A model generated the notes under the pieces. That model was not told where the DNA came from, did no database searches, and saw only the letters and a list, made by a program, of their open reading frames with translations. Position numbers and translations under genes: made by a program. A DNA stretch of 64,000 bases, taken from Botryllus schlosseri. Its lineage: Eukaryota. The stretch lies in assembly GCA_051294905.1 (NCBI GenBank), contig CM119371.1, forward strand, positions 20,772,001 through 20,836,000, written 5' to 3'. Shown in pieces: positions 150-64,000 of this stretch. Every line of letters begins with the position of its first letter. The first letter of the stretch is position 1.

Positions 150-860
150 ATAATGTGACGAAGTCATATCAACGGGTCCGCCCGCCCGAAGATGTTTAAT
201 TATTATTTACGGACCCTCCCGTCTTCAAGACACTTCACTCATCTCTACCGGTAAATCTAATTGCGTGAGTAGAGAGGACAAGAAAGTGATAGCAATATAT
301 ATGCAATTGCCGATCTGATTGACCGATTTTATTATAAATTACCGAAAATTTTCGCGCTTCGCGCTGGCTCACTATACAGTACAGCTGATTGCGTGACAAA
401 CGCGAACAACGTGATTAGGGGGGGGGGGCGTTTTACCATCCTATGGGAGCCCAAGACCCAAGTTTTTCGGTTCTCTGACGAGGTGCTGCTTCGTTCCTGC
501 CAACGGGTATACTCCCAAAGATGTTTAATTATTATTGAGTGGTCCTACCTTTTGGAACACACGTCACTCAGCTCTACCGGCAAATCTGATTACGTGAGCA
601 GAGAGAAGATAAAAATTGATAACAATATATATGCAATTCCCGATCATACTGACCGATTCAATCATGAATTCTAGAAAATTTTCGCGCTTCGCGCGCTTAG
701 GCGATAAAAGTTGATTCACTAAACAACCCCCAATGTAGATGATAAGTAACCATAAAAAGGGTAAAGCCTGAGGGGGGTCTGGGGGGCGAAGCCCGCCAGA
801 AGTTAGGTTTATCACCCTATGGGGGGCCCAAGACCAACGTTTTGGGGGGGGGCTGACGAA
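150..860. repeat. Interspersed repeat with an internal ~190-bp duplication (about 190-365 vs 518-697); further copies at about 22410-22690 and 39400-39510
   Basis: Shared blocks gatgtttaattattatt, ctctaccgg.aaatct, caatatatatgcaatt and aaaattttcgcgcttcgcgc. The gggggtctggggggc motif occurs at both 774 and 22674. Confidence 0.75.
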
Positions 861-1283
861 GTGCTGTTACGGCCCTGCAAGTAAGTATGTCTAAAAGTCG
901 GGTTTTCGACGAATCAAAACGAGTGTTTCTAGTAGGTAAAAAACGCATCAAAAACCCAAGAGTCTGGCTATAAGCATAGCGGAATGATTCAATTCGAACA
1001 CAAAACCAACGTCGATAAAGCATAAATATATTCAGTCGGGTAATTGATCAGTTTTCGGCTGATATCTAGCCTGATTTTGGACAAGATTGTTTTCATATTA
1101 ATCCTGTATTTTCAAGTAAATTATTTAATGCAAAATAAACAGCTGTGATGTTACGAAATAGGAAAAAAAGCAATTCATTGCAATCACATGCAAGTTTGTT
1201 ATCATTATAGTCGACTGCTTTCACAGATCTATATCTATATAAATAAATTAATTATTCTGCTTACAACAATTATCTCCTTTTAG

Positions 1284-1483
1284 ATATTAAAAAGGAATTT
1301 CTAGTATCTGTTGATGCATTTCTGAGTGCAACGATTAGTCCTCTCGATCGATTGAAGCCAAAGTTCACGAATGACCGCCATCCGATTAGGATACGTGATT
1401 TATATAAACTGATGATACTATGTGACAATAAATTCGAGAACTCCATGGCGGATGGACGTATTGAAGAAAAAGACATTAAAGAC
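1284..1483 (+). CDS. Exon A (200 nt): (D)IKKEFLVSVDAFLSATISPLDRLKPKFTNDRHPIRIRDLYKLMILCDNKFENSMADGRIEEKDIKD
   Basis: Acceptor ctccttttag, donor gac|gtaaga, open frame. Resembles the end of the atlastin/GBP G domain (EF...L..P..L.PK..NG..I...DL). Confidence 0.8.
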
Positions 1484-1983
1484 GTAAGAAAAATATGCTC
1501 TTGCTATTTTAGTACTTAATGACTTCGCTTCTGCCGAATTGTAGCACGGCCTAATTCAGTGGTTCCCAACTTGGGGTCGACGAAACCACTAAATTTGCAA
1601 CGTGATCAATAATCAATTTGGTATTTTACCATCTCTAGGGTAGAAAATTATGATGTTTTGATCTATATGATATGAAACAGTTTGGCTGGAACTGAAACGT
1701 GAGCACCAACATCAGTAAAACCCCGTTTGTGATAAAATATACTGCTAGACAAGCTCATTTTAATTGCATGTAATCTATTAAACTATTAGAGCATAATATC
1801 CCGCCAGGTGAGATCACAGATTTGAATGGAAGCTGTCAGCTGTAACAATATCATACGGCGAATGTAGTCAGAACGCCGGTAAATTTTAAAATGAAACAAA
1901 ATTACGACATATCGCATCTAAACTGCTAAAACGACGCTGCTAAATACTATTGAGTGGATGTTATACTTGAGATAATATTACAG

Positions 1984-2052
1984 GGGGAAGACCGAGTGGC
2001 ATATGAAAGAAAGTACGAACAGCTGTATGAAGAATTCGTTGACACGATCCAG
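1984..2052 (+). CDS. Exon B (69 nt): GEDRVAYERKYEQLYEEFVDTIQ
   Basis: Acceptor attacag, donor cag|gtaggt, phase 0/0, helical peptide. Confidence 0.8.
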
Positions 2053-5000
2053 GTAGGTATATACTATTTTGTATAAAGTCAAAAAGAATAAGAATGAAAA
2101 AGCAAAATTCGAAAAAAATTACCAGGAACCATATACTGAACCACCTCCATATGCTTTCCTGGCTTCAACATTTAGTTGCATGGTATTGTCATTACACGCA
2201 AAGAGAAAGTGAACGAAAGCTTCTGGAAACGAAATACACAAGCAAATACACGATTAAGCTGGACTGAACGTGTATATCTATCTGATATTATAATAGGAAT
2301 ATGGATAGAAAAATATTCAATATTTTTTCAAAGAAGATGACTAACACGCACGCCAATGAATTCCTATAAACGTTTTTTTTTCTTTTTTGGAGGCTGTCAA
2401 ATGATTGAGTGGATTGTTGGTTATTGGGATTATTATCACAAATCTTTCAAAATAATAGATAGACCAGAATAAAAATAAGGTAGGGGATAATAAATCTAAT
2501 ACTGTAATCCAAATTGCTTACCATTAATTATACCAAGGGCGTTTTTTTTTAATATGTCATGATTTTGTCGAAATTGTAGCGTTAGGTCAAGAAAGTGTCA
2601 AAATTCTGTACAAATTCAAAATTGTTTTGCAACCTATATTTCGTTTTTTCGTATATGTTTGCGTTGTCTGTGAACTTATAATTCGCCATTTTACATGCTG
2701 CAGCCTTCTTATAGGCCTACCGTTGTAAACGACCCATTATCCGCTCATTGTGATGGATAAACGGCCAAATGAAACAAATTGTTGGATATGGTGATATGCT
2801 GTCGCAATATCTTAACTGAAGGAAGACCGCGTGGGCAGTCGTTATAATCAGGGATGGTGTGAACGTGACATTCACGTTCGCGTTCTGTGTGTGAACCTCA
2901 CAAATTAAGAGGTTCACGATCACAGAAGCAGCTTGGTATGTGCATTGCAAACCGTTTTCATATATTACCAGTTATTACGTCATTATTATATCTATAATTT
3001 AAATTATTTGCAATCCAACTTCAGACCACTCTATGCAAGTATAAAAAAATCAACACTAAACGAGCACCTTACCCCACACCTTACCAATCCCAAAATTTTA
3101 CTTGCTGTGTTACAAAATTTTGCTCGAAATATTCATCTTCCCGGTTGTGAATATTTATCAAATGTCTAAGGTGAGCATGACCCGAAATCACATGGCATCA
3201 AGAACGAAATACAGTAAAGATCAGTAGTCAGCGAATTATACTTATTCAGCCGATCACAGAAATTGATATATAAAAAATACGTCATCTAATGCAAAAAATC
3301 AAGCAGGCGTTCTGATTCCATCAGCTCAATACCAATGTCACAATAGTCAGGCACCGAATTCAATACATTGTCTGGTCTGGCTTCTACCGTTAAGGCGTTA
3401 GCTTACATTCCCTTGCAAATTCTCGTCGGAATTGTTGGCAAAGAGACGGAAGATAATAATTTTATGAAAGTCAGCATGTACTTCAGTATTGTGGCATAAT
3501 GTAACTTGAGTCGTCGCTAGGTATGTCTGTTTACAATAACACATCTGTTCACTGACATGTGTGGTTGAAATTAGCAATGTGACGTCACCTGTCGTCATAA
3601 GGTTCACGTTTGCATTCACAAGCAACCTTTCAACAATTATCCAGGTTCACACGGGGGTTCGCACCGTCCATAGTTATTATATCAGGAAGCTCATGATGAG
3701 AAATTGTGATGTATAAAACATCGTCACAATCAAGCAACACGGTGTGTTAACAGCAGTGTGAGCACAACTTCAGTGTTATCAGCCAACATCTGCTTCTGGT
3801 ACACGTTCTTTCTCCATTCTGAATAAGGACAGACACTTTTTACCCGAGAATGTAGGAAAGTATCTTTCGCCGCACTGCTATTACTTTTAATTATTTTTAT
3901 CATAATGAGATTGTAACGAATGTAATTCTTCGTAGGTCTGGATTTCGTTTAAGGCGACTACCAAGTCCCAAACCTAACTTTCAGTACTATACCCCCATCA
4001 CCATGAAATTTTCACAGTCGCTATATGTCGCTATGCTATATGCAAAAAACAAGAAAAATCTCACCTTCAGATTGAGGATTTGAATGAGAAAAAATGGCAC
4101 CGACACGGGAATGTATATCTCAAAATTCTGCAGTCCTCTTTTCAATAGAGCGCCTTCTTTTGGAAGTACTAGGACAGTGCCATGTTGTGGTAAAATTTGA
4201 AGGAGTATGTCCAACCCCTCTGGGTAAATTTTATTTCGAGATTTCAAAGATTCAAATTTCAGGTAATTTTTTCAAAAAGTTTGCCTTGAAGCTCTGTAAT
4301 TCAGCGCAAGGTAGATCTAGGCCAAATGACGCTTAGCATAACATAGGTCTCGATGTTAGCTTATCAATAAAACCTGACTGATTACTATACGATATATATG
4401 TCATATAAATTTTTGATTTACCATGAGGCTGTTCGACAAAATTTTACAATAGAGAAAAACGATAATAAACATTTTACCAGTAATAGAAGAGTAATAGCAA
4501 GTAAGTTAGAAGACTAAGAAGAGTAGAAGAGCAATAGAAGTTTTTAGTTATGTTTTGTATAAGATAAGATACTATGTTGATATTTCAAACCAGGAAAAAA
4601 TTGAAAATTTTAATATTTTTTCTAACTTGTCCCCTCAATTAATTCTGACGATTCGAGTTTGATATGGTGTGGGAGGATTTTATGGAGTACTGAAATTCAC
4701 GTCGCTTGCCTCTGCAAGTTCTTTTTGTTCGCTTATTTTAAAACTGCACTACTTCCTAATTGGCGAGGAAGCTTTTAAACCATTCCATTTGACTACGTGA
4801 AATTGACACTTGGTGGACACATGACGATGCATTCTTCCTTCTTGTCTGAACTGGCTGCCATGAGGACGCAGAAATAAAACTGTCTAAAAACTATTGTGAA
4901 TCTCTTTACATCGACTATATTAGGAGGTCTTTCACACTTCCACCTATTAAATTGTTGTCGAAATGATGATTCACATTTTAAAGTGAAGGATATTTCTTTA

Positions 5001-5717
5001 TTGCACGTAAGTGATCGTTACAAGTTGATGAAACCAGCATATTTAAAGTGATATTCTAACAAAATGCGATAGGTGGAGACGTAGCCAAGGTTTAATTTTC
5101 CCCGAATCATATACTATTAGATATGGCATTAGCAAAGCACGGAGATTTCAGCCGCATTTCTGTAACAATAGAGGGCACGATAATCAAGGAGACGAACGTC
5201 AAGATTAAATTAAGCCTATAGGACAGTGGTTCCCAACTTTTTGTCATCATTCCCCATATCAGATGTATTCCGAGCCGTCCTTCCTTACTACCCAATTTAT
5301 TTTAGTTTATTATGAAGCAGGTTGTATGAGTGCACAAGACACACAACCCACCAGTGCGCAAGAAAGTCGCCTATTATTGCAACATGAAACATATGTGATG
5401 AACCGATACTTGTTACACTCAAAATTTAGCGAAAGCGTGATTTCACGTCATACAGGTCATGCTCCATGCGTTTGTGAAGCCATGATTGGTTATCCAGTCT
5501 TAAAAATGCGTTTTTGTGAACAAGGCGCAAACTAATTCTCGATACATACAGTCCAGAGCAGTTAACTGGTAATGGTATTTGCGTATGTGTCTCCGTAAAT
5601 ATGTAGACTGTCCTGTATGTAATGTGCCCTGTAATAAATGTGTCTATTCCCCCCAAGAAACCGTTGAATTTCCCACCGTTTGGGAACTGGTATAGTTTAT
5701 ATGTCTGCATATCATAG

Positions 5718-5921
5718 CACATGGATGCTGAATCTTCAATCGCAATCGAGGGTCGTTGCGTTGAATTGTTGAGACAAAAACTCCAACAATTCTGTGAAGA
5801 CGTATCGAAGTGGAATGTCAATGAAGTGGGAAGGCAATATGAATCGAAATACAAAGAAAGACTTACTGTTCAAATGGAAAATGCTACAGCGAGACGAGTC
5901 TTGAAATGGATGAGCCAACAG
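5718..5921 (+). CDS. Exon C (204 nt): HMDAESSIAIEGRCVELLRQKLQQFCEDVSKWNVNEVGRQYESKYKERLTVQMENATARRVLKWMSQQ
   Basis: Acceptor atcatag, donor cag|gtattt, phase 0/0. Overlaps ORF 5721..5936. Resembles atlastin middle-domain helices 2-3. Confidence 0.8.
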
Positions 5922-10275: not shown

Positions 10276-10680
10276 GTAGGTATTGGTTTATACCACATAC
10301 CACCAAACCTCAATGGTTACGAACCTATGGTGCAAACAAAATGTAGATATATTATTACTATTATGTTTCGGTTATTCTACTCTCTGTAATAAAACCTTTC
10401 ATGTTGACTACAGAAATTTCTTTCCGACGCCTGGCAGCAATTTCGGGTTTATTAGTAAAGCTTTCAAAGCTAAAAATCAGACCATGCATGTCAATATATA
10501 TCAAAGCTGCAAGAGATCAACAATGTCTGCGGCTTGTGCGATAATAAAATCGCCACAATAAAATATCTCGTGGGAGAGCTCGTCTTTACATAGGCTACAT
10601 AAACCAATGATGTATCATTCGTATTATTTCAAAACACCTTCTACTGACTTTTTTTTGCTTCGGATGCTAATCCTTCCACA

Positions 10681-11210
10681 TTGATGAAAACAGCGCTGCA
10701 CACGGAATTTAGCTCAATTCCAACCAGTAGAAGTAGTTTTCTTGGAGTAGAAAGTTTTGAATATACAATTAAAAAACAAAAAATAAATATTTTAAATTTT
10801 TCTGTCAACCACATAAAATTCTTAGGCTATCAGTAGAGATGATGCATATCAAATTTGGCTCAATTTCAACCCCCAAAAGCGAAGTTGTTGCAGCAGAAAA
10901 ATTTCCAATTCCATGATTTTATATTAAATACCCATATTAAATACTATTTTATTCAATTCCAAATTTTTCTACTGCAATAACTTCGCTTCTAGTGGCCGGA
11001 ATTGAACGAAATTTAGTGTGCATAACCTCTACTGACAGCCTATTAATTTTATGGGGTTGACAGAAAAATTTCGAAAATTAATTTTTTCGTTTTTAATAAT
11101 AAATTCTAAACTTTTTACTGCAAGAAAATTGGTTGTACTAATTGGAAGTGAGCCAAAGCTGGTGTGCAGCGTTATTTTCACCAACCTAACAATTTTATCA
11201 AGTAGCCAGT
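10681..11210. mobile_element. Palindromic (fold-back) non-autonomous element
   Basis: Imperfect inverted arms of about 230 bp (e.g. aaatttttctgtcaacc / ggttgacagaaaaattt; cgctgcacac / gtgtgcagcg). Second copy at 61367-61774. Confidence 0.8.
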
Positions 11211-12989: not shown

Positions 12990-13790
12990 TTGTATCGTAA
13001 TAATTGGTAATAACGTCTAGATAAGCGATAGCGGCTTATAGTTCATTACTTTTTATAAATCTGTCAAAAAAGCTTTGAAACGCAGCAATTCCATTAGCGA
13101 TTTCAAAGGGAAGCCTGCAAAATTGATATAGACGACCGCAACCTTCGAATGCAGTAAAAGGCTTATCATTACTTCCAAGAGGTATCTGATGGTAAACGGA
13201 CTTCAAATCTATCGCACTGTACCATTTAGCTCGAGCTACATATTATACAACGTTTTCAATATTCGGAAGCGGATAAGCATCTAGTGTATTATAGCGGTTG
13301 ATGATTATTTGAGAGTAATCAACGACCAATCTCTTCTTATGTCTGGAGTCCTTCACCACCAACACCTGAGCTCTCCACGGAGACGAGGGAGGTGTGATCA
13401 CTTCAAATTCTATGAGGTTCGAAACTTCGTCACGTATGAACTCCTTGTCATCATAACCGTAGTTTGTAGACTTGGTAGCCAAGGGCTTCATGTTTCCATC
13501 TACAAACCGCATAATACATGGCGTCTCGTTCACTTTAGTAGCTATCACATTACTAGCATCGGTTTCTGCTGCTCTGTTAGCGCCCCCGTTAGCGCTTGCA
13601 TTCGCGACCATCCAATCGCCACCGCCTCTTGCTCTGCCACTGTTTATGGTTATATCTCCATCGCAACTGAATTCAAAAACAGCTCTTTTATGCTTTTCGA
13701 ATAAAATATGGCCTAGAGCCAAATCGCAACAATGATCGTCGAGATCGCCGAACCGAACAAACTTCGACATTCAATTACCCAAATTCACAA
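12990..13790 (-). mobile_element. Degenerate Ty3/gypsy pol fragment (end of protease plus RT N-terminal half)
   Basis: SSPWRAQVLVVKD...KKRLVVDYSQ..N....LDAYPLPNIE, then a stop, then WYSAIDLKSVYHQIPL...FTAF...LYQFCRLPF..., and YLDV after a frameshift. Confidence 0.9.
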
Positions 13791-38088: not shown

Positions 38089-38797
38089 CACAAGTAGAAT
38101 CGCAGATAATCTTCATGACAAAATCTCTGATGCCTGCAACGCAAAAGCTTGTGATACCTGCGACTAATCAAAGCAACATACTCTATTAATGCACGACCCG
38201 ATATGACATTCGGTATGTAGGTTGCACGTCTCAGTGCTTGCAGCAAAGAATTCACCAGCATATTCCACGGCAAATTAGAATAAGTAATGTTTCTCCAGCT
38301 CCGTCATCGCAGTCTGTTGACACACTGCGTGATTATGATCAAGGTACTGCTTGTAATTCGGCTATTGGACAGCATCTCTTATCCCATCTAGAATGTGTTG
38401 ATCATTACAATGACAGTCAATTTTCTATAGTTGCTCATGGCCGTTCTCTTTTTCATTTGAAGGTCCTGGAATCTACGATCATAAAGCTGCGAAAGCCGAT
38501 TCTCTGTAGCCAGAAGAAACGCCTCTACACCCTTGGAATATTTCATTATTGTTGTGTGCTGTGTTCTCGGTTATTTATAACCGAATATGTGCTCGTTAAC
38601 TTTTGTTTTGTATCGTTACTACCGTATCTTGCCCGTCTAGTAGTTGGTCGTTTTTGTTATTAATACGTCATAGAAACAAAATAAATTTATATTTCGAATT
38701 TGATCCACCCTATTACCGACGTTCGCTACTGATAGGGGTCAGTCGAAAAGCTTTTAGCGAATAAATTAACAATGTGAAGTTATTGTTTCGCGTTATT
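38089..38797 (+). mobile_element. Penelope-like element fragment (GIY-YIG), right arm of the inverted pair
   Basis: ORF 38238..38663 (SAIGQHLL...FSIVAHGRSLFHLKVLESTIIKLRKPILCSQK). Reverse complement of 37259-37962 with scattered substitutions. Confidence 0.9.
38721..38762 (+). ncRNA. Degenerate minimal type I hammerhead ribozyme (CUGAUGA changed to CUGAUAG)
   Basis: ttcgcta CTGATag gggtcagtc GAAA agct tt tagcgaa. Confidence 0.65.
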
Positions 38798-42071: not shown

Positions 42072-43664
42072 TAAGGTTTGTAACCAAGTTACAATGTTCT
42101 GAGTCGCAAGTCAATCTCACTTTTATAGTTATGACTCGAGTCAGAGAGAGAGAGAGAGAGAGAAATATTTATTGATTCGTCCAACCGAAACGAAAATAAC
42201 ATTGGCGCATGAAATTATAACAAGATACTTAACGGTGTAGGACAGGGTGTAATCGATATGACTCTGGGTAGGGTCAACTAGTCTGATCACACCCTGCATT
42301 AACAGTGACAGATATTCTTTATAAATTTGGTTGCAGTTGGTTGGGATTATCTAATTCATCATAGCATAACATAAATAATAACAATAACATGGAAAAAAGG
42401 GTAAGACAAGTGGTGTTAGTAATAGAAGATAAGGTGTCTGAATAATTCTTCTTTGAATAGGTGATAAGGAAGGTCTCTGATAGATGTAGGTATAGTGTTC
42501 CAGATATCAGGACCGACATATTCGATTGATTTCTTTGTGAGGTTACTGGTGGGAGGGCGTACATGGATGTTGCCCTTGGAAGAATATCTGGTGTTGTGGG
42601 AGTGTACACTTCGAGCAAGCACGAATAAATGGTTGAAGACGGGAAGCAAGTCATTCGAAAAATATCGATGCATTAATTTTGCAACTTCAAATACAAATAT
42701 GTCATCAAATTTCAAGATTCTGTGTTTGCGGTAGAACTGGGACAGTCTGGTTCGAAGGGGCAGGCCGGCCATCAAACGCAAGGCTCGGTGTTGCAGGGTT
42801 CGAGTTTTAGAGCAATGAGAGGTGCATGCAGTACCCCATACAATAATGCCATACTGCAGATACGAGTAGAAAAGTGAAAAATAAATTGTCCTAAGTACAG
42901 ATCTAGGAGCTATGTGCCTGAGTCGGGTCATTACACCAACACATCTAGAAAGCTGAGTAATGGTATGAGCAATGTGCGGTTTCCATGACAATTTAGAGTC
43001 AATGACAATTCCAAGATATTTTGTTGAGTCACAGAGGGAAATACGGTTGTTATTCAGATTCACAGTAAAGTTATCAGAGGCAGTATTAAAGAGTAGCATC
43101 ACAGTTTTATCAGTATTTAAACTCAGTTTGTTGGCAGCAAGCCATTGAGAGACTTTAATAAGTTCACTCTGCACAGTACTTTGTAGGTTGTTTACATTAT
43201 CTATTCAAGTCTATTCATTTTCAATCCCCCCCCCCCCGAGTCAAGTGCGAGTCCAAGTTAGCTAGTATAGGGTCGAGTCCGAGTCATATTTTTTGTCTCG
43301 AGTCCGAGTCCAAGTCGTTATGTTCACAGATCAGTTTTCTGATCAATCCGGTTCAACCCACTTTTTTCAACTCTGCTCGAGGGATATAGAATGGCTCGTG
43401 TTCATAATATCGTATTTTTCATCAGGTTTCACAGTTTACGGCCCCATTTCCAAGTATCAGGACTGATAGACGAAATACAAATAATGTGGTAACATTACTA
43501 TTCTTCGAAGTTACATGGAATGTCTGTATTGGCCGTTCTAGTCTCGAGTCATGCAAAATGACTCGAGTACAAGTCGAGGTAATACAAAAAATAACTCGAG
43601 TCAAGTGTAGTCACCAAAAAATCGCGACTCGAGTCGAGTCATGACTCGAGTCATTACAACCCTG
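42072..43664. mobile_element. hAT MITE with GACTCGAGTC repeats, nested in 41149-44746
   Basis: Perfect TSD ggtattgg. Ends taaggtttgtaa / ttacaaccctg. Confidence 0.8.
42143..43200 (-). mobile_element. 5'-truncated CR1-group (L2/Crack-like) LINE: RT C-terminus, 3' UTR and (TC)n tail
   Basis: Uninterrupted ORF 42416..43174 (WLAANKLSLNTDKT...KYLGIVIDSKLSWKPHI...GPDIWNTIP). The minus strand has AATAAA followed by (TC)n at 42143-42172. Confidence 0.92.
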
Positions 43665-61366: not shown

Positions 61367-61774
61367 CTGGCTACTTGATAAAATTGTTAGGTTACCTAAT
61401 TTAAGCCTAAACACAAAATTTGGTTCAATTCCAGCCAGTAACCGCTTTGCTACAGGAGAAGAAAGTTTCTATTTATTATATAAAAATAAATAGGTAATAA
61501 AAATTTGAGAATTTTCTGTTCACCCCATGAAAGTGTTAGGCTGTCTATAGAAACGATGCTCACCAAATTTGGTTCAATTCCAACCAGTGGAAGCGGAGAT
61601 ATTGCCGTCGAAAAATTTGGATTTGAATAAAATAGTATTTACGGTGACCGATTCTTTGTTTACTTATTAAAGTTGTGCTCACCGTAAGTACTATTTTATT
61701 AAAACCAAATTTTTCGACAGCAATAACTCCGCTTCCACTGGTTGGAATTGAGCCAAATTTGGTGAGGATCGTTT
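61367..61774. mobile_element. Fold-back element (family of 10681-11210), right arm interrupted by the LINE
   Basis: ctggctacttgataaaattgttaggtt is the reverse complement of 11183-11209. Near-perfect arms at about 61551-61646 and 61680-61774. Symmetry stops abruptly at 61774. Confidence 0.85.
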
Positions 61775-62376
61775 GGAGTATTTGGTTGTATTAAGGCCGC
61801 TAAGGCAATAGCATAGACCTAGCTACCGTAATTGCTAGTAGATTTTCTTAGACTAAGCTTTTCACTTAGGCTAATTAACTTCTTCTTCTACTTCTTCCTT
61901 TTCGTCGCCGTTGGATTTCTACTTCACTTCGAGTCTCCTTCAGACTCATCCCTTCTCCCTCCTGAGACTTGACTCCTCTTCGTGAGTCAGGTCTCAAGGA
62001 GTCTTTATCTACCTCTCCGAGAATTGGCTCGTCTTCGTGAGTCAATCTCGGTTGAGTCTTTTCCCTCTTCAAGTCTTGACTCGATCGCGTGAGTCAGGAC
62101 TTGTCGAGTCCTTTCTTTAGAGACTTGACTCTCTCTTGAGTCAAGCCTCTCCTCTGTCTACGATACACGCCGTCTTTGTGTATCGTACGACCACTAATTA
62201 CCTTATCTCGCACGGTTGTCGTCTGTCTAGACAGACATCGTACCATTCTGCCTTGCCGAAAGCGATAACATAGTTCCGCACTTACTGCAGCTTAAGCTTC
62301 TAAAAGACGATATACAGCCTTGAATTGAGACGCTACAAGCCTTACTAGGCCATACGTACGCAGAATTTCAAGTGAA

Positions 62377-63618
62377 ATGGCATACGCAAGTGCTCTACGT
62401 AACGAAAAGTGGCATAGAATTACCTACGGGTATAGACCGAGATCGCTAGACATTGTCACACCTCTAGAAAGCAATGCAGCTGAAGTAATAGATGCAATAA
62501 TCAAACATCCTTTACTCAAGCATCAAACAAATGAGATAGCATCTATCTTTCAAATAGGTAGAGCTACCTATAACCTCTCCTTCCACAAGGAATCCCCAGT
62601 GGACGCCTTGATGGAATCTTTCCTGAGGAATACTGAAGATGGAATAAGAACGGAAAACGGCACCCTATATCTCCATAAACCGCAACCTCCCGCGATACAA
62701 ATAAATATCAGGGCTGTGCCCACAGAAGTGGAGAATGAGGAAGTAATACACAAGATCGAAGAACTAGAATGCGGGACGATACGAAACATCAAAATGATTT
62801 ACCACAAAGGCACGAAAATACACAACGGATACCGCCAGGTGATCATAGACAACTATATCCCTGGCAAAATCCCAGCTTTCATATACTTAGGCAGGGCACC
62901 CTGCAAAGTATATCTCCCAGCCGACGAAGCAACAAACAAATGCTTTAGATGCCTTAGAGCAGGACACAATGCAGCAGATTGTCCGAACGAGACAGCGTGC
63001 CTAATCTGTAAAGAGTATGGCCACAGAAGAGACGCATGTCCACAAAATGAAAACGCTACAGTGCAGATGAATAACCCAAACCAAACAGTAGAAGATACAA
63101 TGCAGATAGAAAATGATGAACAGGCAGCTCAGAACCCTCCATTAAGTCAGAACGAAGAAGTTATAGAGGAATCTGAGCAAGAAGAACCAGAACAAAAGGA
63201 AGACGAACTGCATGATTTCTTTAACCTGGCGGAGAGTTCACCACCGACTCCAGATAGAAGCGAACTGGACACAACGATAAAACCAAATGAAGAAATAGAA
63301 TCTAACAGTGAAAATGAAAGCATACAACAAACGGACGATGAACTACATAGAGTAACGAGCGAGGAAGACACACAAAAAAGTGCAAACACAGACAAGAATA
63401 AGTCAAAAAAAGCAAAGAAAATAACCAGCAGAACTGGCCAAACGGCAACACTTGCGAGAAGATTTGAAAGCGGACGCTTTACGGCAGAGGAGTTCTTTGG
63501 CAAGAACGTCTTCTCGCCCAATAAGCGGAGTAACAACGACCGAAGTCCAACGCTTATATCGGAAGATGGTGCAAGGAGAAAACTTTTGAAGGCAGACGAC
63601 CTCAAAAATAAATCCTAA
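62377..63618 (+). CDS. LINE ORF1p, gag-like, with two CCHC zinc knuckles (413 aa)
   Basis: CFRCLRAGHNAADC and CLICKEYGHRRDAC, an upstream RRM-like region (NGYRQV...IPAFIYLG) and an acidic/basic low-complexity tail. Confidence 0.93.
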   Translation: MAYASALRNEKWHRITYGYRPRSLDIVTPLESNAAEVIDAIIKHPLLKHQTNEIASIFQIGRATYNLSFHKESPVDALMESFLRNTEDGIRTENGTLYLHKPQPPAIQINIRAVPTEVENEEVIHKIEELECGTIRNIKMIYHKGTKIHNGYRQVIIDNYIPGKIPAFIYLGRAPCKVYLPADEATNKCFRCLRAGHNAADCPNETACLICKEYGHRRDACPQNENATVQMNNPNQTVEDTMQIENDEQAAQNPPLSQNEEVIEESEQEEPEQKEDELHDFFNLAESSPPTPDRSELDTTIKPNEEIESNSENESIQQTDDELHRVTSEEDTQKSANTDKNKSKKAKKITSRTGQTATLARRFESGRFTAEEFFGKNVFSPNKRSNNDRSPTLISEDGARRKLLKADDLKNKS

Positions 63619-63657
63619 AACAATCCGACCACTGAACATGTCCCCTGATCCGATTAA

Positions 63658-64000
63658 ATGGCCTTTAACCTGCACTCACTTAACGTCAATGGCCTACGGG
63701 CACATTGGCAAAAAATAAAACGATTTTTGAAAACCGAAAAGAAGTGGGATATCATCTGCTTCCAAGAAACCCACAGAGTGGACGATAACACCATTAACAA
63801 ATGGGCAGAACAAAACAACATCAAATACTATCCAAACCAAATCGGACCAAAAGAACAATGGACAGATAAAGAAGAAGGAAAGAAGCTATACTTTAGAGGC
63901 ACCAGTATCCTCATTAAAAAAGAACTGGGAAAAAAGTACCACATAGGAAGCCAAATAGTTGTAGCGGATAGAATCCAGGCAATATCAATGACCGATATCG
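63658..64000 (+). CDS. LINE ORF2p N-terminus, APE-type endonuclease (partial)
   Basis: MAFNLHSLNVNGLR...WDIICFQETH...RGTSILI...R. No stop before the window end, so it is absent from the ORF track. Confidence 0.93.
   Translation, partial: MAFNLHSLNVNGLRAHWQKIKRFLKTEKKWDIICFQETHRVDDNTINKWAEQNNIKYYPNQIGPKEQWTDKEEGKKLYFRGTSILIKKELGKKYHIGSQIVVADRIQAISMTDI

Follow-up and report, generated by a model that had tools for sequence, protein, structure and literature searches.

The 5' ends of several retroelements resemble the one considered here, and the comparisons below follow the available parts of the cited reports. In mouse L1 (L1Md A, G and T), monomers of about 200 nt stand in tandem and in variable number, with a spacer before ORF1 (PMC6454616, PMC5381506); A monomers carry two AP-1 sites, and deletion lowers transcription (PMC6454616). 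A section on tandem motifs in mammalian L1 5' UTRs describes duplicated shorter motifs, and hairpins are not described in that section (PMC5381506). The structured 5' ends of Trypanosoma cruzi L1Tc (Pr77/L1TcRz) and of R2 (an HDV-like ribozyme) are each a single pseudoknotted ribozyme at the very 5' end of the LINE; in L1Tc one sequence is both promoter (as DNA) and ribozyme (as RNA), a precedent for coexisting readings (PMC3383444). Crocodilian SINEU and Tx1-Mar carry at their head a 5' fragment of a small RNA of spliceosomal type, and Tx1 has been described inserted in Tx1D, a non-autonomous DNA-transposon-like repeat (PMC4494074). Dinoflagellate retrogenes are host genes whose genomic copies start with a DNA-encoded spliced leader, the relic being truncated and in tandem (PMC12014239).

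The window (the whole 64,000-nt stretch of Botryllus schlosseri DNA that was analysed) contains a genuine array of four hairpins, a structured repeat shared by several families, in the leader of an ascidian LINE headed by a spliced leader (SL). Like the mouse monomers, the array units are tandem, variable in number and set off from ORF1 by a spacer. Each also has an AP-1-type heptamer, a sequence match that need not mean binding. Unlike the monomers, the units measure 49-55 nt, and each is a hairpin in which pairs are compensated, a feature that neither L1 report describes for 5' UTR repeats; the element moreover has a spliced leader at its start, and a promoter role is only putative. Rather than one pseudoknotted ribozyme at the tip, simple repeated hairpins lie 190 nt inside the element. 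The head and the insertion into a palindromic repeat recall SINEU and Tx1, but here the head is a spliced leader on an autonomous LINE, and a hairpin array is not mentioned in the available part of that report. The likeness to the dinoflagellate retrogenes ends at the leader, since this is a LINE and one near-complete copy. A literature search over mostly freely available papers (chiefly titles and abstract openings, Repbase apart) returned no description of leader-headed LINEs in ascidians, nor one of such a hairpin array. The features are listed in Table 1.

Table 1. Features of the element and its flank (window positions; a dot marks features given without a strand)
Feature	Position	Strand	Remark
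Palindromic MITE-like repeat, insertion target of the LINE	61367..61774	.	right arm ends at 61774
Spliced-leader copy, 23 nt exact, 5' end of the element	61773..61795	+	first TT shared with flank
5' leader, 581 nt	61796..62376	+	0 ATG
Small 6-bp hairpin, GAGTC/GACTC words in reverse order	61931..61947	+	-5.6 kcal/mol
Unit 1: 17-bp stem, one bulge, 8-nt loop; AP-1-type heptamer at 61983, third GAGTC at 61999	61959..62006	+	-26.5 kcal/mol
Unit 2: 13-bp stem, bulge, G-U in core; AP-1-type heptamer at 62038, third GAGTC at 62054	62013..62061	+	
Unit 3: 13-bp stem, two double-compensated pairs; AP-1-type heptamer at 62090, third GAGTC at 62106	62065..62113	+	
Unit 4: 12 pairs and one A.C mismatch, 6-nt loop; AP-1-type heptamer at 62137, without third GAGTC	62119..62150	+	
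Unrelated 10-bp hairpin after the array	62159..62187	+	fold
Perfect 16-bp palindrome	62221..62236	.	weak as RNA hairpin
ORF1, 413 aa, intact; two tandem RRM folds, two CCHC knuckles, acidic tail	62377..63618	+	
ORF2 start, AP-endonuclease-like; runs off the window	63658..64000	+	114 aa inside

The hairpins were first described in a sequence-only reading, at 61959-62001, 62017-62051, 62070-62103 and 62119-62150, and their arms and loops match the sequence. The inner stem that they were said to share is also borne out: the two-arm core TG(A/G)CTC-loop-GAGTCA occurs four times in the 64-kb window, every time in the array. Their outer arms do differ, as had been claimed, but they are not unrelated; the four units are homologous, with 72% mean column identity and two invariant outer pairs, and thus are copies of one 49-55-nt unit. 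The proposed period of about 50 nt holds roughly, the exact spacing of unit starts being 55, 52 and 49 nt. Each unit consists of a pyrimidine linker, an outer arm, TGACTC, a 6-8-nt loop ending in T, GAGTCA and the other outer arm. In units 1-3, the third GAGTC follows exactly 15 nt past the second, and its GAG pairs with the CTC at the base of the stem. The loop T and GAGTCA together form TGAGTCA, the AP-1 consensus; it is perfect in all four units, against 0.15 expected by shuffling. The 5' core is a full AP-1 site in none of the four (best match 6/7). Unpaired bases in 61925-62240 on the plus strand are mostly pyrimidine (101 of 122), and 55 of the 61 G residues in the array region are paired.

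Folding of 61900-62300 on the plus strand, the check suggested with the first reading, gave -143 kcal/mol (z = -8.55, with 0 of 100 shuffles as good); the minus strand of the same 401-nt region gave z = -6.61. When the whole leader is folded (61772-62400), almost every stem pair in units 1-4 reaches a probability of 0.9-1.0, and the flanking hairpins that had been proposed at 61931-61947 (6 bp) and 62159-62187 (10-11 bp) form as well. For the latter, one X8 contig end has a similar 5' arm, a different loop and the beginning of a complementary arm. At 62221-62236, the sequence is indeed a perfect 16-bp palindrome, but it makes a weak RNA hairpin (6 bp, -5.6 kcal/mol), with no internal pair above 0.5 probability in the whole-leader fold. 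As RNA, its 4-nt loop is self-complementary. The palindrome contains GTCTAGAC, a Smad-binding palindrome. A reading of GTCT/AGAC as Smad sites is retained only as a side remark; the counts, 10 against 5.8 expected and 5 against 2.8, are inflated by duplication of the unit. A Microprocessor substrate was considered and set aside, as stems of 13-17 bp look too short for that enzyme. Among 300-nt tiles of the window, the array region ranks 5th by folding and the adjoining palindromic repeat 1st. Tandem Repeats Finder did not report the array. Rfam gave 0 matches in the window at the gathering score; at E <= 10, the matches over the array were limited to weak miRNA, CRISPR, sRNA and snoRNA models (E 3-9). 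Rfam miRNA matches at 61568-61757 belong to the palindromic repeat, far below the gathering scores, and were discarded.

Upstream of the element, the palindromic repeat has inverted arms at 61551-61631 and 61694-61774, and the right arm mirrors the left (as its reverse complement) up to 61774, then departs; in a relative of the repeat at about 10620-11209, both arms continue. The segment 61773-61795 reproduces without change the final 23 nt of the leader named 'Chordata 1' (PMC3795323, Table 1), which is assigned to seven ascidian species, Botryllus schlosseri and Halocynthia roretzi among them (PMC3795323, supplement 2); judged by this identity, it is the stolidobranch ascidian spliced leader. 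Because the copy is followed by GC (61796-61797) and not by a GT donor, it is not an SL RNA gene. A search with the leader sequence returned 0 viral and 0 prokaryotic contigs. The leader lies exactly at the 5' junction of the element, a position supported by joints in three runs. Among the contig joints listed for these runs, 5 of 10 depart at 61795-61800 and rejoin at 61877-61965; related elements thus have an identical head and different sequence behind it. We infer a full-length copy, reverse-transcribed from an RNA that contained the array and the whole leader. The leader itself may have been acquired by trans-splicing or by capture of the 5' piece of the leader RNA; capture of a small RNA's 5' piece has been proposed for SINEU heads in the available part of PMC4494074. 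One 203-nt X1 contig (depth 186) is identical to 61776-61955 and has 23 extra letters upstream, about 20 past the leader start; these could represent a flank or target held in common. The 80 nt that follow the leader contain nine AGs, at 61802-61869, seven of them TAG, which are possible alternative acceptors.

Downstream of the leader copy, the 5' leader is ATG-free, as is none of 1210 tiles of the same size elsewhere in the window; mononucleotide shuffles predict 7.6 ATGs and dinucleotide shuffles 3.1, with P(0) = 0.03. The sequence-only reading had placed the array in the 5' UTR of a LINE, and the coding part agrees: an ORF1 with RRMs and zinc knuckles is followed by an ORF2 with an AP-endonuclease-like start. 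A model of ORF1 residues 1-225 from a 37-sequence alignment reached a pLDDT of 89.9; its best matches are tandem-RRM proteins (nucleolin, hnRNP A1) with E about 2e-6 and modest TM scores of 0.3-0.4. Pfam finds the zinc knuckles. On this predicted structure, ORF1 is of type I, with RRMs directly before the CCHC knuckles; the available part of PMC4120745 defines this type, describes its domains as transcript-binding and places it in several clades. Seven ORF1 relatives have 42-60% identity, and 47 proteins in a larger library reach E 1e-10; none was confirmed among 31 candidates from prokaryotic genomes or 66 from viral contigs. For ORF2, the Pfam Exo_endo_phos match (E = 5.8e-4, 20.1 bits) is under the curated cut-off of 24.5, and exonuclease III structures in the PDB match with E = 4.7e-4, so that the AP-endonuclease assignment is weak but consistent. 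None of 67 candidate ORF2 relatives was confirmed. We take the element to be an APE-type LINE, and suspect the L1/Tx1 group; its RT and 3' end lie past the end of the window. The 39-nt spacer between the ORFs (63619-63657) contains an ATG at 63638 that is out of frame, and a stop codon in frame immediately ahead of the ORF2 ATG.

Related elements can be seen in contigs of three sequencing runs. The records aligned number 101 for X1 (36 of them <90% alike), 15 for X8 and 18 for X9; the unit recurs in these relatives, its core conserved and its loops variable. Over the array, the depth in X1 is uneven, from 616 to 5,794 per bin, against 430-560 over 62196-62800, so the unit is common to many other elements. 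X8 and X9 carry near-identical pieces of the family at depth 2-6, and so perhaps do not represent independent species. At two joints, 92 and 101 nt are skipped, roughly two units, which indicates that the number of units varies among relatives. The 24 runs listed included no RNA run with the sequence, and about 12% of RNA run X21 gave 0 reads on the stretch, neither of which bears on expression. A search with the two-hairpin pattern returned 71 loci from metagenome contigs, but viral contigs gave 0. The metagenome loci were rejected as homologues: the best scores 35 bits to the unit model, versus 40-70 for the window's own units, from which the model was built. The 71 loci gave no blastn match to the window and no ORF1 relative beyond two knuckle matches of 22-25 aa (L068). 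Several of them (L068 1777-2047, L069 2800-3070, also L014, L030, L045 and L054) belong to an unrelated repeat family with several paired TGACTC/GAGTCA sites; in L069 it lies directly before an ORF that by eye resembles an LTR-retrotransposon RT-RNase H.

The central claim of the sequence-only reading was that pairing is retained despite sequence divergence. It is supported by a count over 13 stem pairs in four units (52 cells, registers set by hand), with four double-compensated cells, three G-U pairs, one mismatch and one bulge. When the 11 outer-stem substitutions are scattered randomly, at least four compensated cells arise with P = 3.5e-5 to 1.9e-4, values that are optimistic because the stem ends and the unit-2 register were picked by pairing, which inflates the simulation. 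In an unedited alignment, four pairs are altered on both sides; 1 of 500 shuffles is as high, a count that rests on four paralogous sequences and is not a probability, and slid controls give 0-1. Units 1-3 fold better on the plus strand than on the minus strand, and unit 4 better on the minus strand. For the 5' arm of unit 4, its own 3' arm is a poorer pairing partner than that of unit 1, so the register is not fully fixed by the divergence of the arms.

Covariation, which had been proposed as a check, was followed among the four paralogous units and in the contig variants listed (40 of 160 difference rows), so that changes in pairing partners may hide among the rest. In this listed set, 22 rows fall in 61959-62150. 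Among 11 listed variants at paired positions, 8 keep pairing on the plus strand and 5 on the minus strand (18-36% expected), and 4 of those 8 merely revert the window's own G-U pairs. Sites listed as variable are 1/48 in the core, 1/18 in the third motif, 6/30 in loops and 10/61 in outer stems, in a comparison at 80% alignment that favours conserved cores and in which units can cross-map.

Taken together, the compensated arms, the tolerance of G-U pairs on the sense strand and the pyrimidine-rich single strands make folding in RNA likely. The reading we tentatively put foremost is that the units are RNA hairpins under selection and serve as a loading platform for ORF1p, the RNA-binding protein of the element itself, which would most plausibly make use of a fold repeated in such a leader. 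Also in its favour are the lack of ATG in the leader, the incomplete 5' AP-1 core of all four units and the two RRMs and two knuckles of ORF1. Four tandem modules of about 50 nt would fold in the element's RNA as repeated hairpins, kept paired by selection on the sense strand. The stems would hold the purines and leave the pyrimidine-rich loops and linkers exposed at regular spacing; the element's own ORF1p, as the putative partner, would dock on the repeats and start coating its RNA, and this binding would mark the RNA for retrotransposition. The footprint of mammalian trimeric ORF1p, given as 50 nt in the available part of PMC3852968, matches the period but belongs to a different type of ORF1. 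Counter to docking, the stem core is fixed and the loops are free, the opposite of what a loop-reading RRM leads one to expect, and the support comes from only four paralogous units and from contigs that are not independent. The same bases may double as transcription-factor sites in DNA.

A constant core beside unconstrained loops is typical of sites for DNA-binding factors, and this, with the AP-1 sites of mouse L1, lends some weight to the main rival, possible but less likely, in which AP-1-type (bZIP) factors would read the array as DNA and each unit would act as an internal promoter monomer. In that case the inner stem would be two opposed AP-1 sites, and the outer arms would come from fold-back template switching or have a secondary role in RNA. 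The perfect heptamers fit, as their first T is in the loop and yet invariant in the window; so do the 15-nt spacing to the third GAGTC, fixed in units 1-3 and seen again in one X9 contig end, the variable unit number, and paired TGACTC/GAGTCA sites that are common in unrelated repeats (71 loci). The heptamer count is not independent, however, since the four descend from one unit. Further points against the promoter interpretation are that no unit has a complete heptamer as its 5' site and that some X9 contig ends, with C for the loop T or with G following GAGTC, lack the heptamer. Unrelated repeats have both sites full in 158 of 291 paired sites, versus 0 of 4 here, and the third motif is not AP-1. 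A DNA site needs neither compensated outer arms nor a sense-strand G-U bias. CpG-island character, looked for as in L1-type promoter monomers, was absent: GC is 45.6% and CpG is not in excess (31 versus 29 expected, background ratio 1.06).

The ATG-free 581 nt suggest a scanned leader, and stems of -16 to -26 kcal/mol stand in the scanning path; hairpins could thus control ORF1 translation from leader-capped RNA, by slowed scanning, shunting or internal entry on the linkers. The available part of PMC8535693 reports that 5' UTRs of mammalian L1 have IRES activity. We consider such control unlikely, as a leader free of ATG agrees with simple scanning, to which strong stems would be an obstacle, about 225 nt separate the end of the array from the ATG, a match to an Rfam IRES is absent, and the invariant core is left unexplained. 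It is very improbable that the stems instead hide splice signals and so keep the array from being cut off the RNA by trans-splicing of the leader or by cis-splicing, despite several fitting details: the leader stands at the start of the element, a pyrimidine tract and then AG are present in each unit, the GTGAGT donor consensus is present in units 1-3 (GT(A/G)AGT in three units versus 0.28 expected), nearly all G residues are paired, and unpaired acceptors attract the leader, according to the available part of PMC1488885. On the other side, the GT sits in the loop and its G is variable in relatives (62089 G>T), YAG is not clearly depleted (6 versus 9.1 expected), and unprotected AGs persist between the array and ORF1. 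Most AGs are GAG, a poor splice acceptor. An array without any function, a tandem-duplicated palindrome with symmetry repaired by template switching in copying, would agree with the small number of units and with the 17 of 71 unrelated loci that have at least two units with at least 5/7 outer pairs around the same core. This, too, we hold to be very unlikely: the unit is common to many diverged elements, core and third motif are conserved with loops free, and template switching yields Watson-Crick pairs, not a strand-biased G-U pattern.

A broader conjecture, improbable as a whole, combines RNA docking by ORF1p with parts of these alternatives. SL-headed ascidian LINE families would have in common a 50-nt module with a double code: in DNA it would be an AP-1 promoter monomer and, in RNA, a hairpin that shields against trans-splicing and nucleates ORF1p. 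If true, no earlier LINE leader would offer a repeated loading signal for ORF1p that is defined in sequence, and the module would touch two open questions, how LINE ORF1p chooses its own RNA and how promoters are retained in trans-splicing hosts. With its fixed core, compensated stems and known spacing, the module is a clean substrate for separating the RNA and DNA readings; if the promoter reading alone holds, it is a compact invertebrate-chordate parallel to the mouse L1 monomers.

Elsewhere in the window, three other ORF remnants that resemble retroelements were recognized by eye: the 3' part of a LINE at 42416-43204 (minus strand), the start of an LTR-type RT at 13243-13770 (minus strand) and a GIY-YIG-like segment at 38190-38663 (plus strand).
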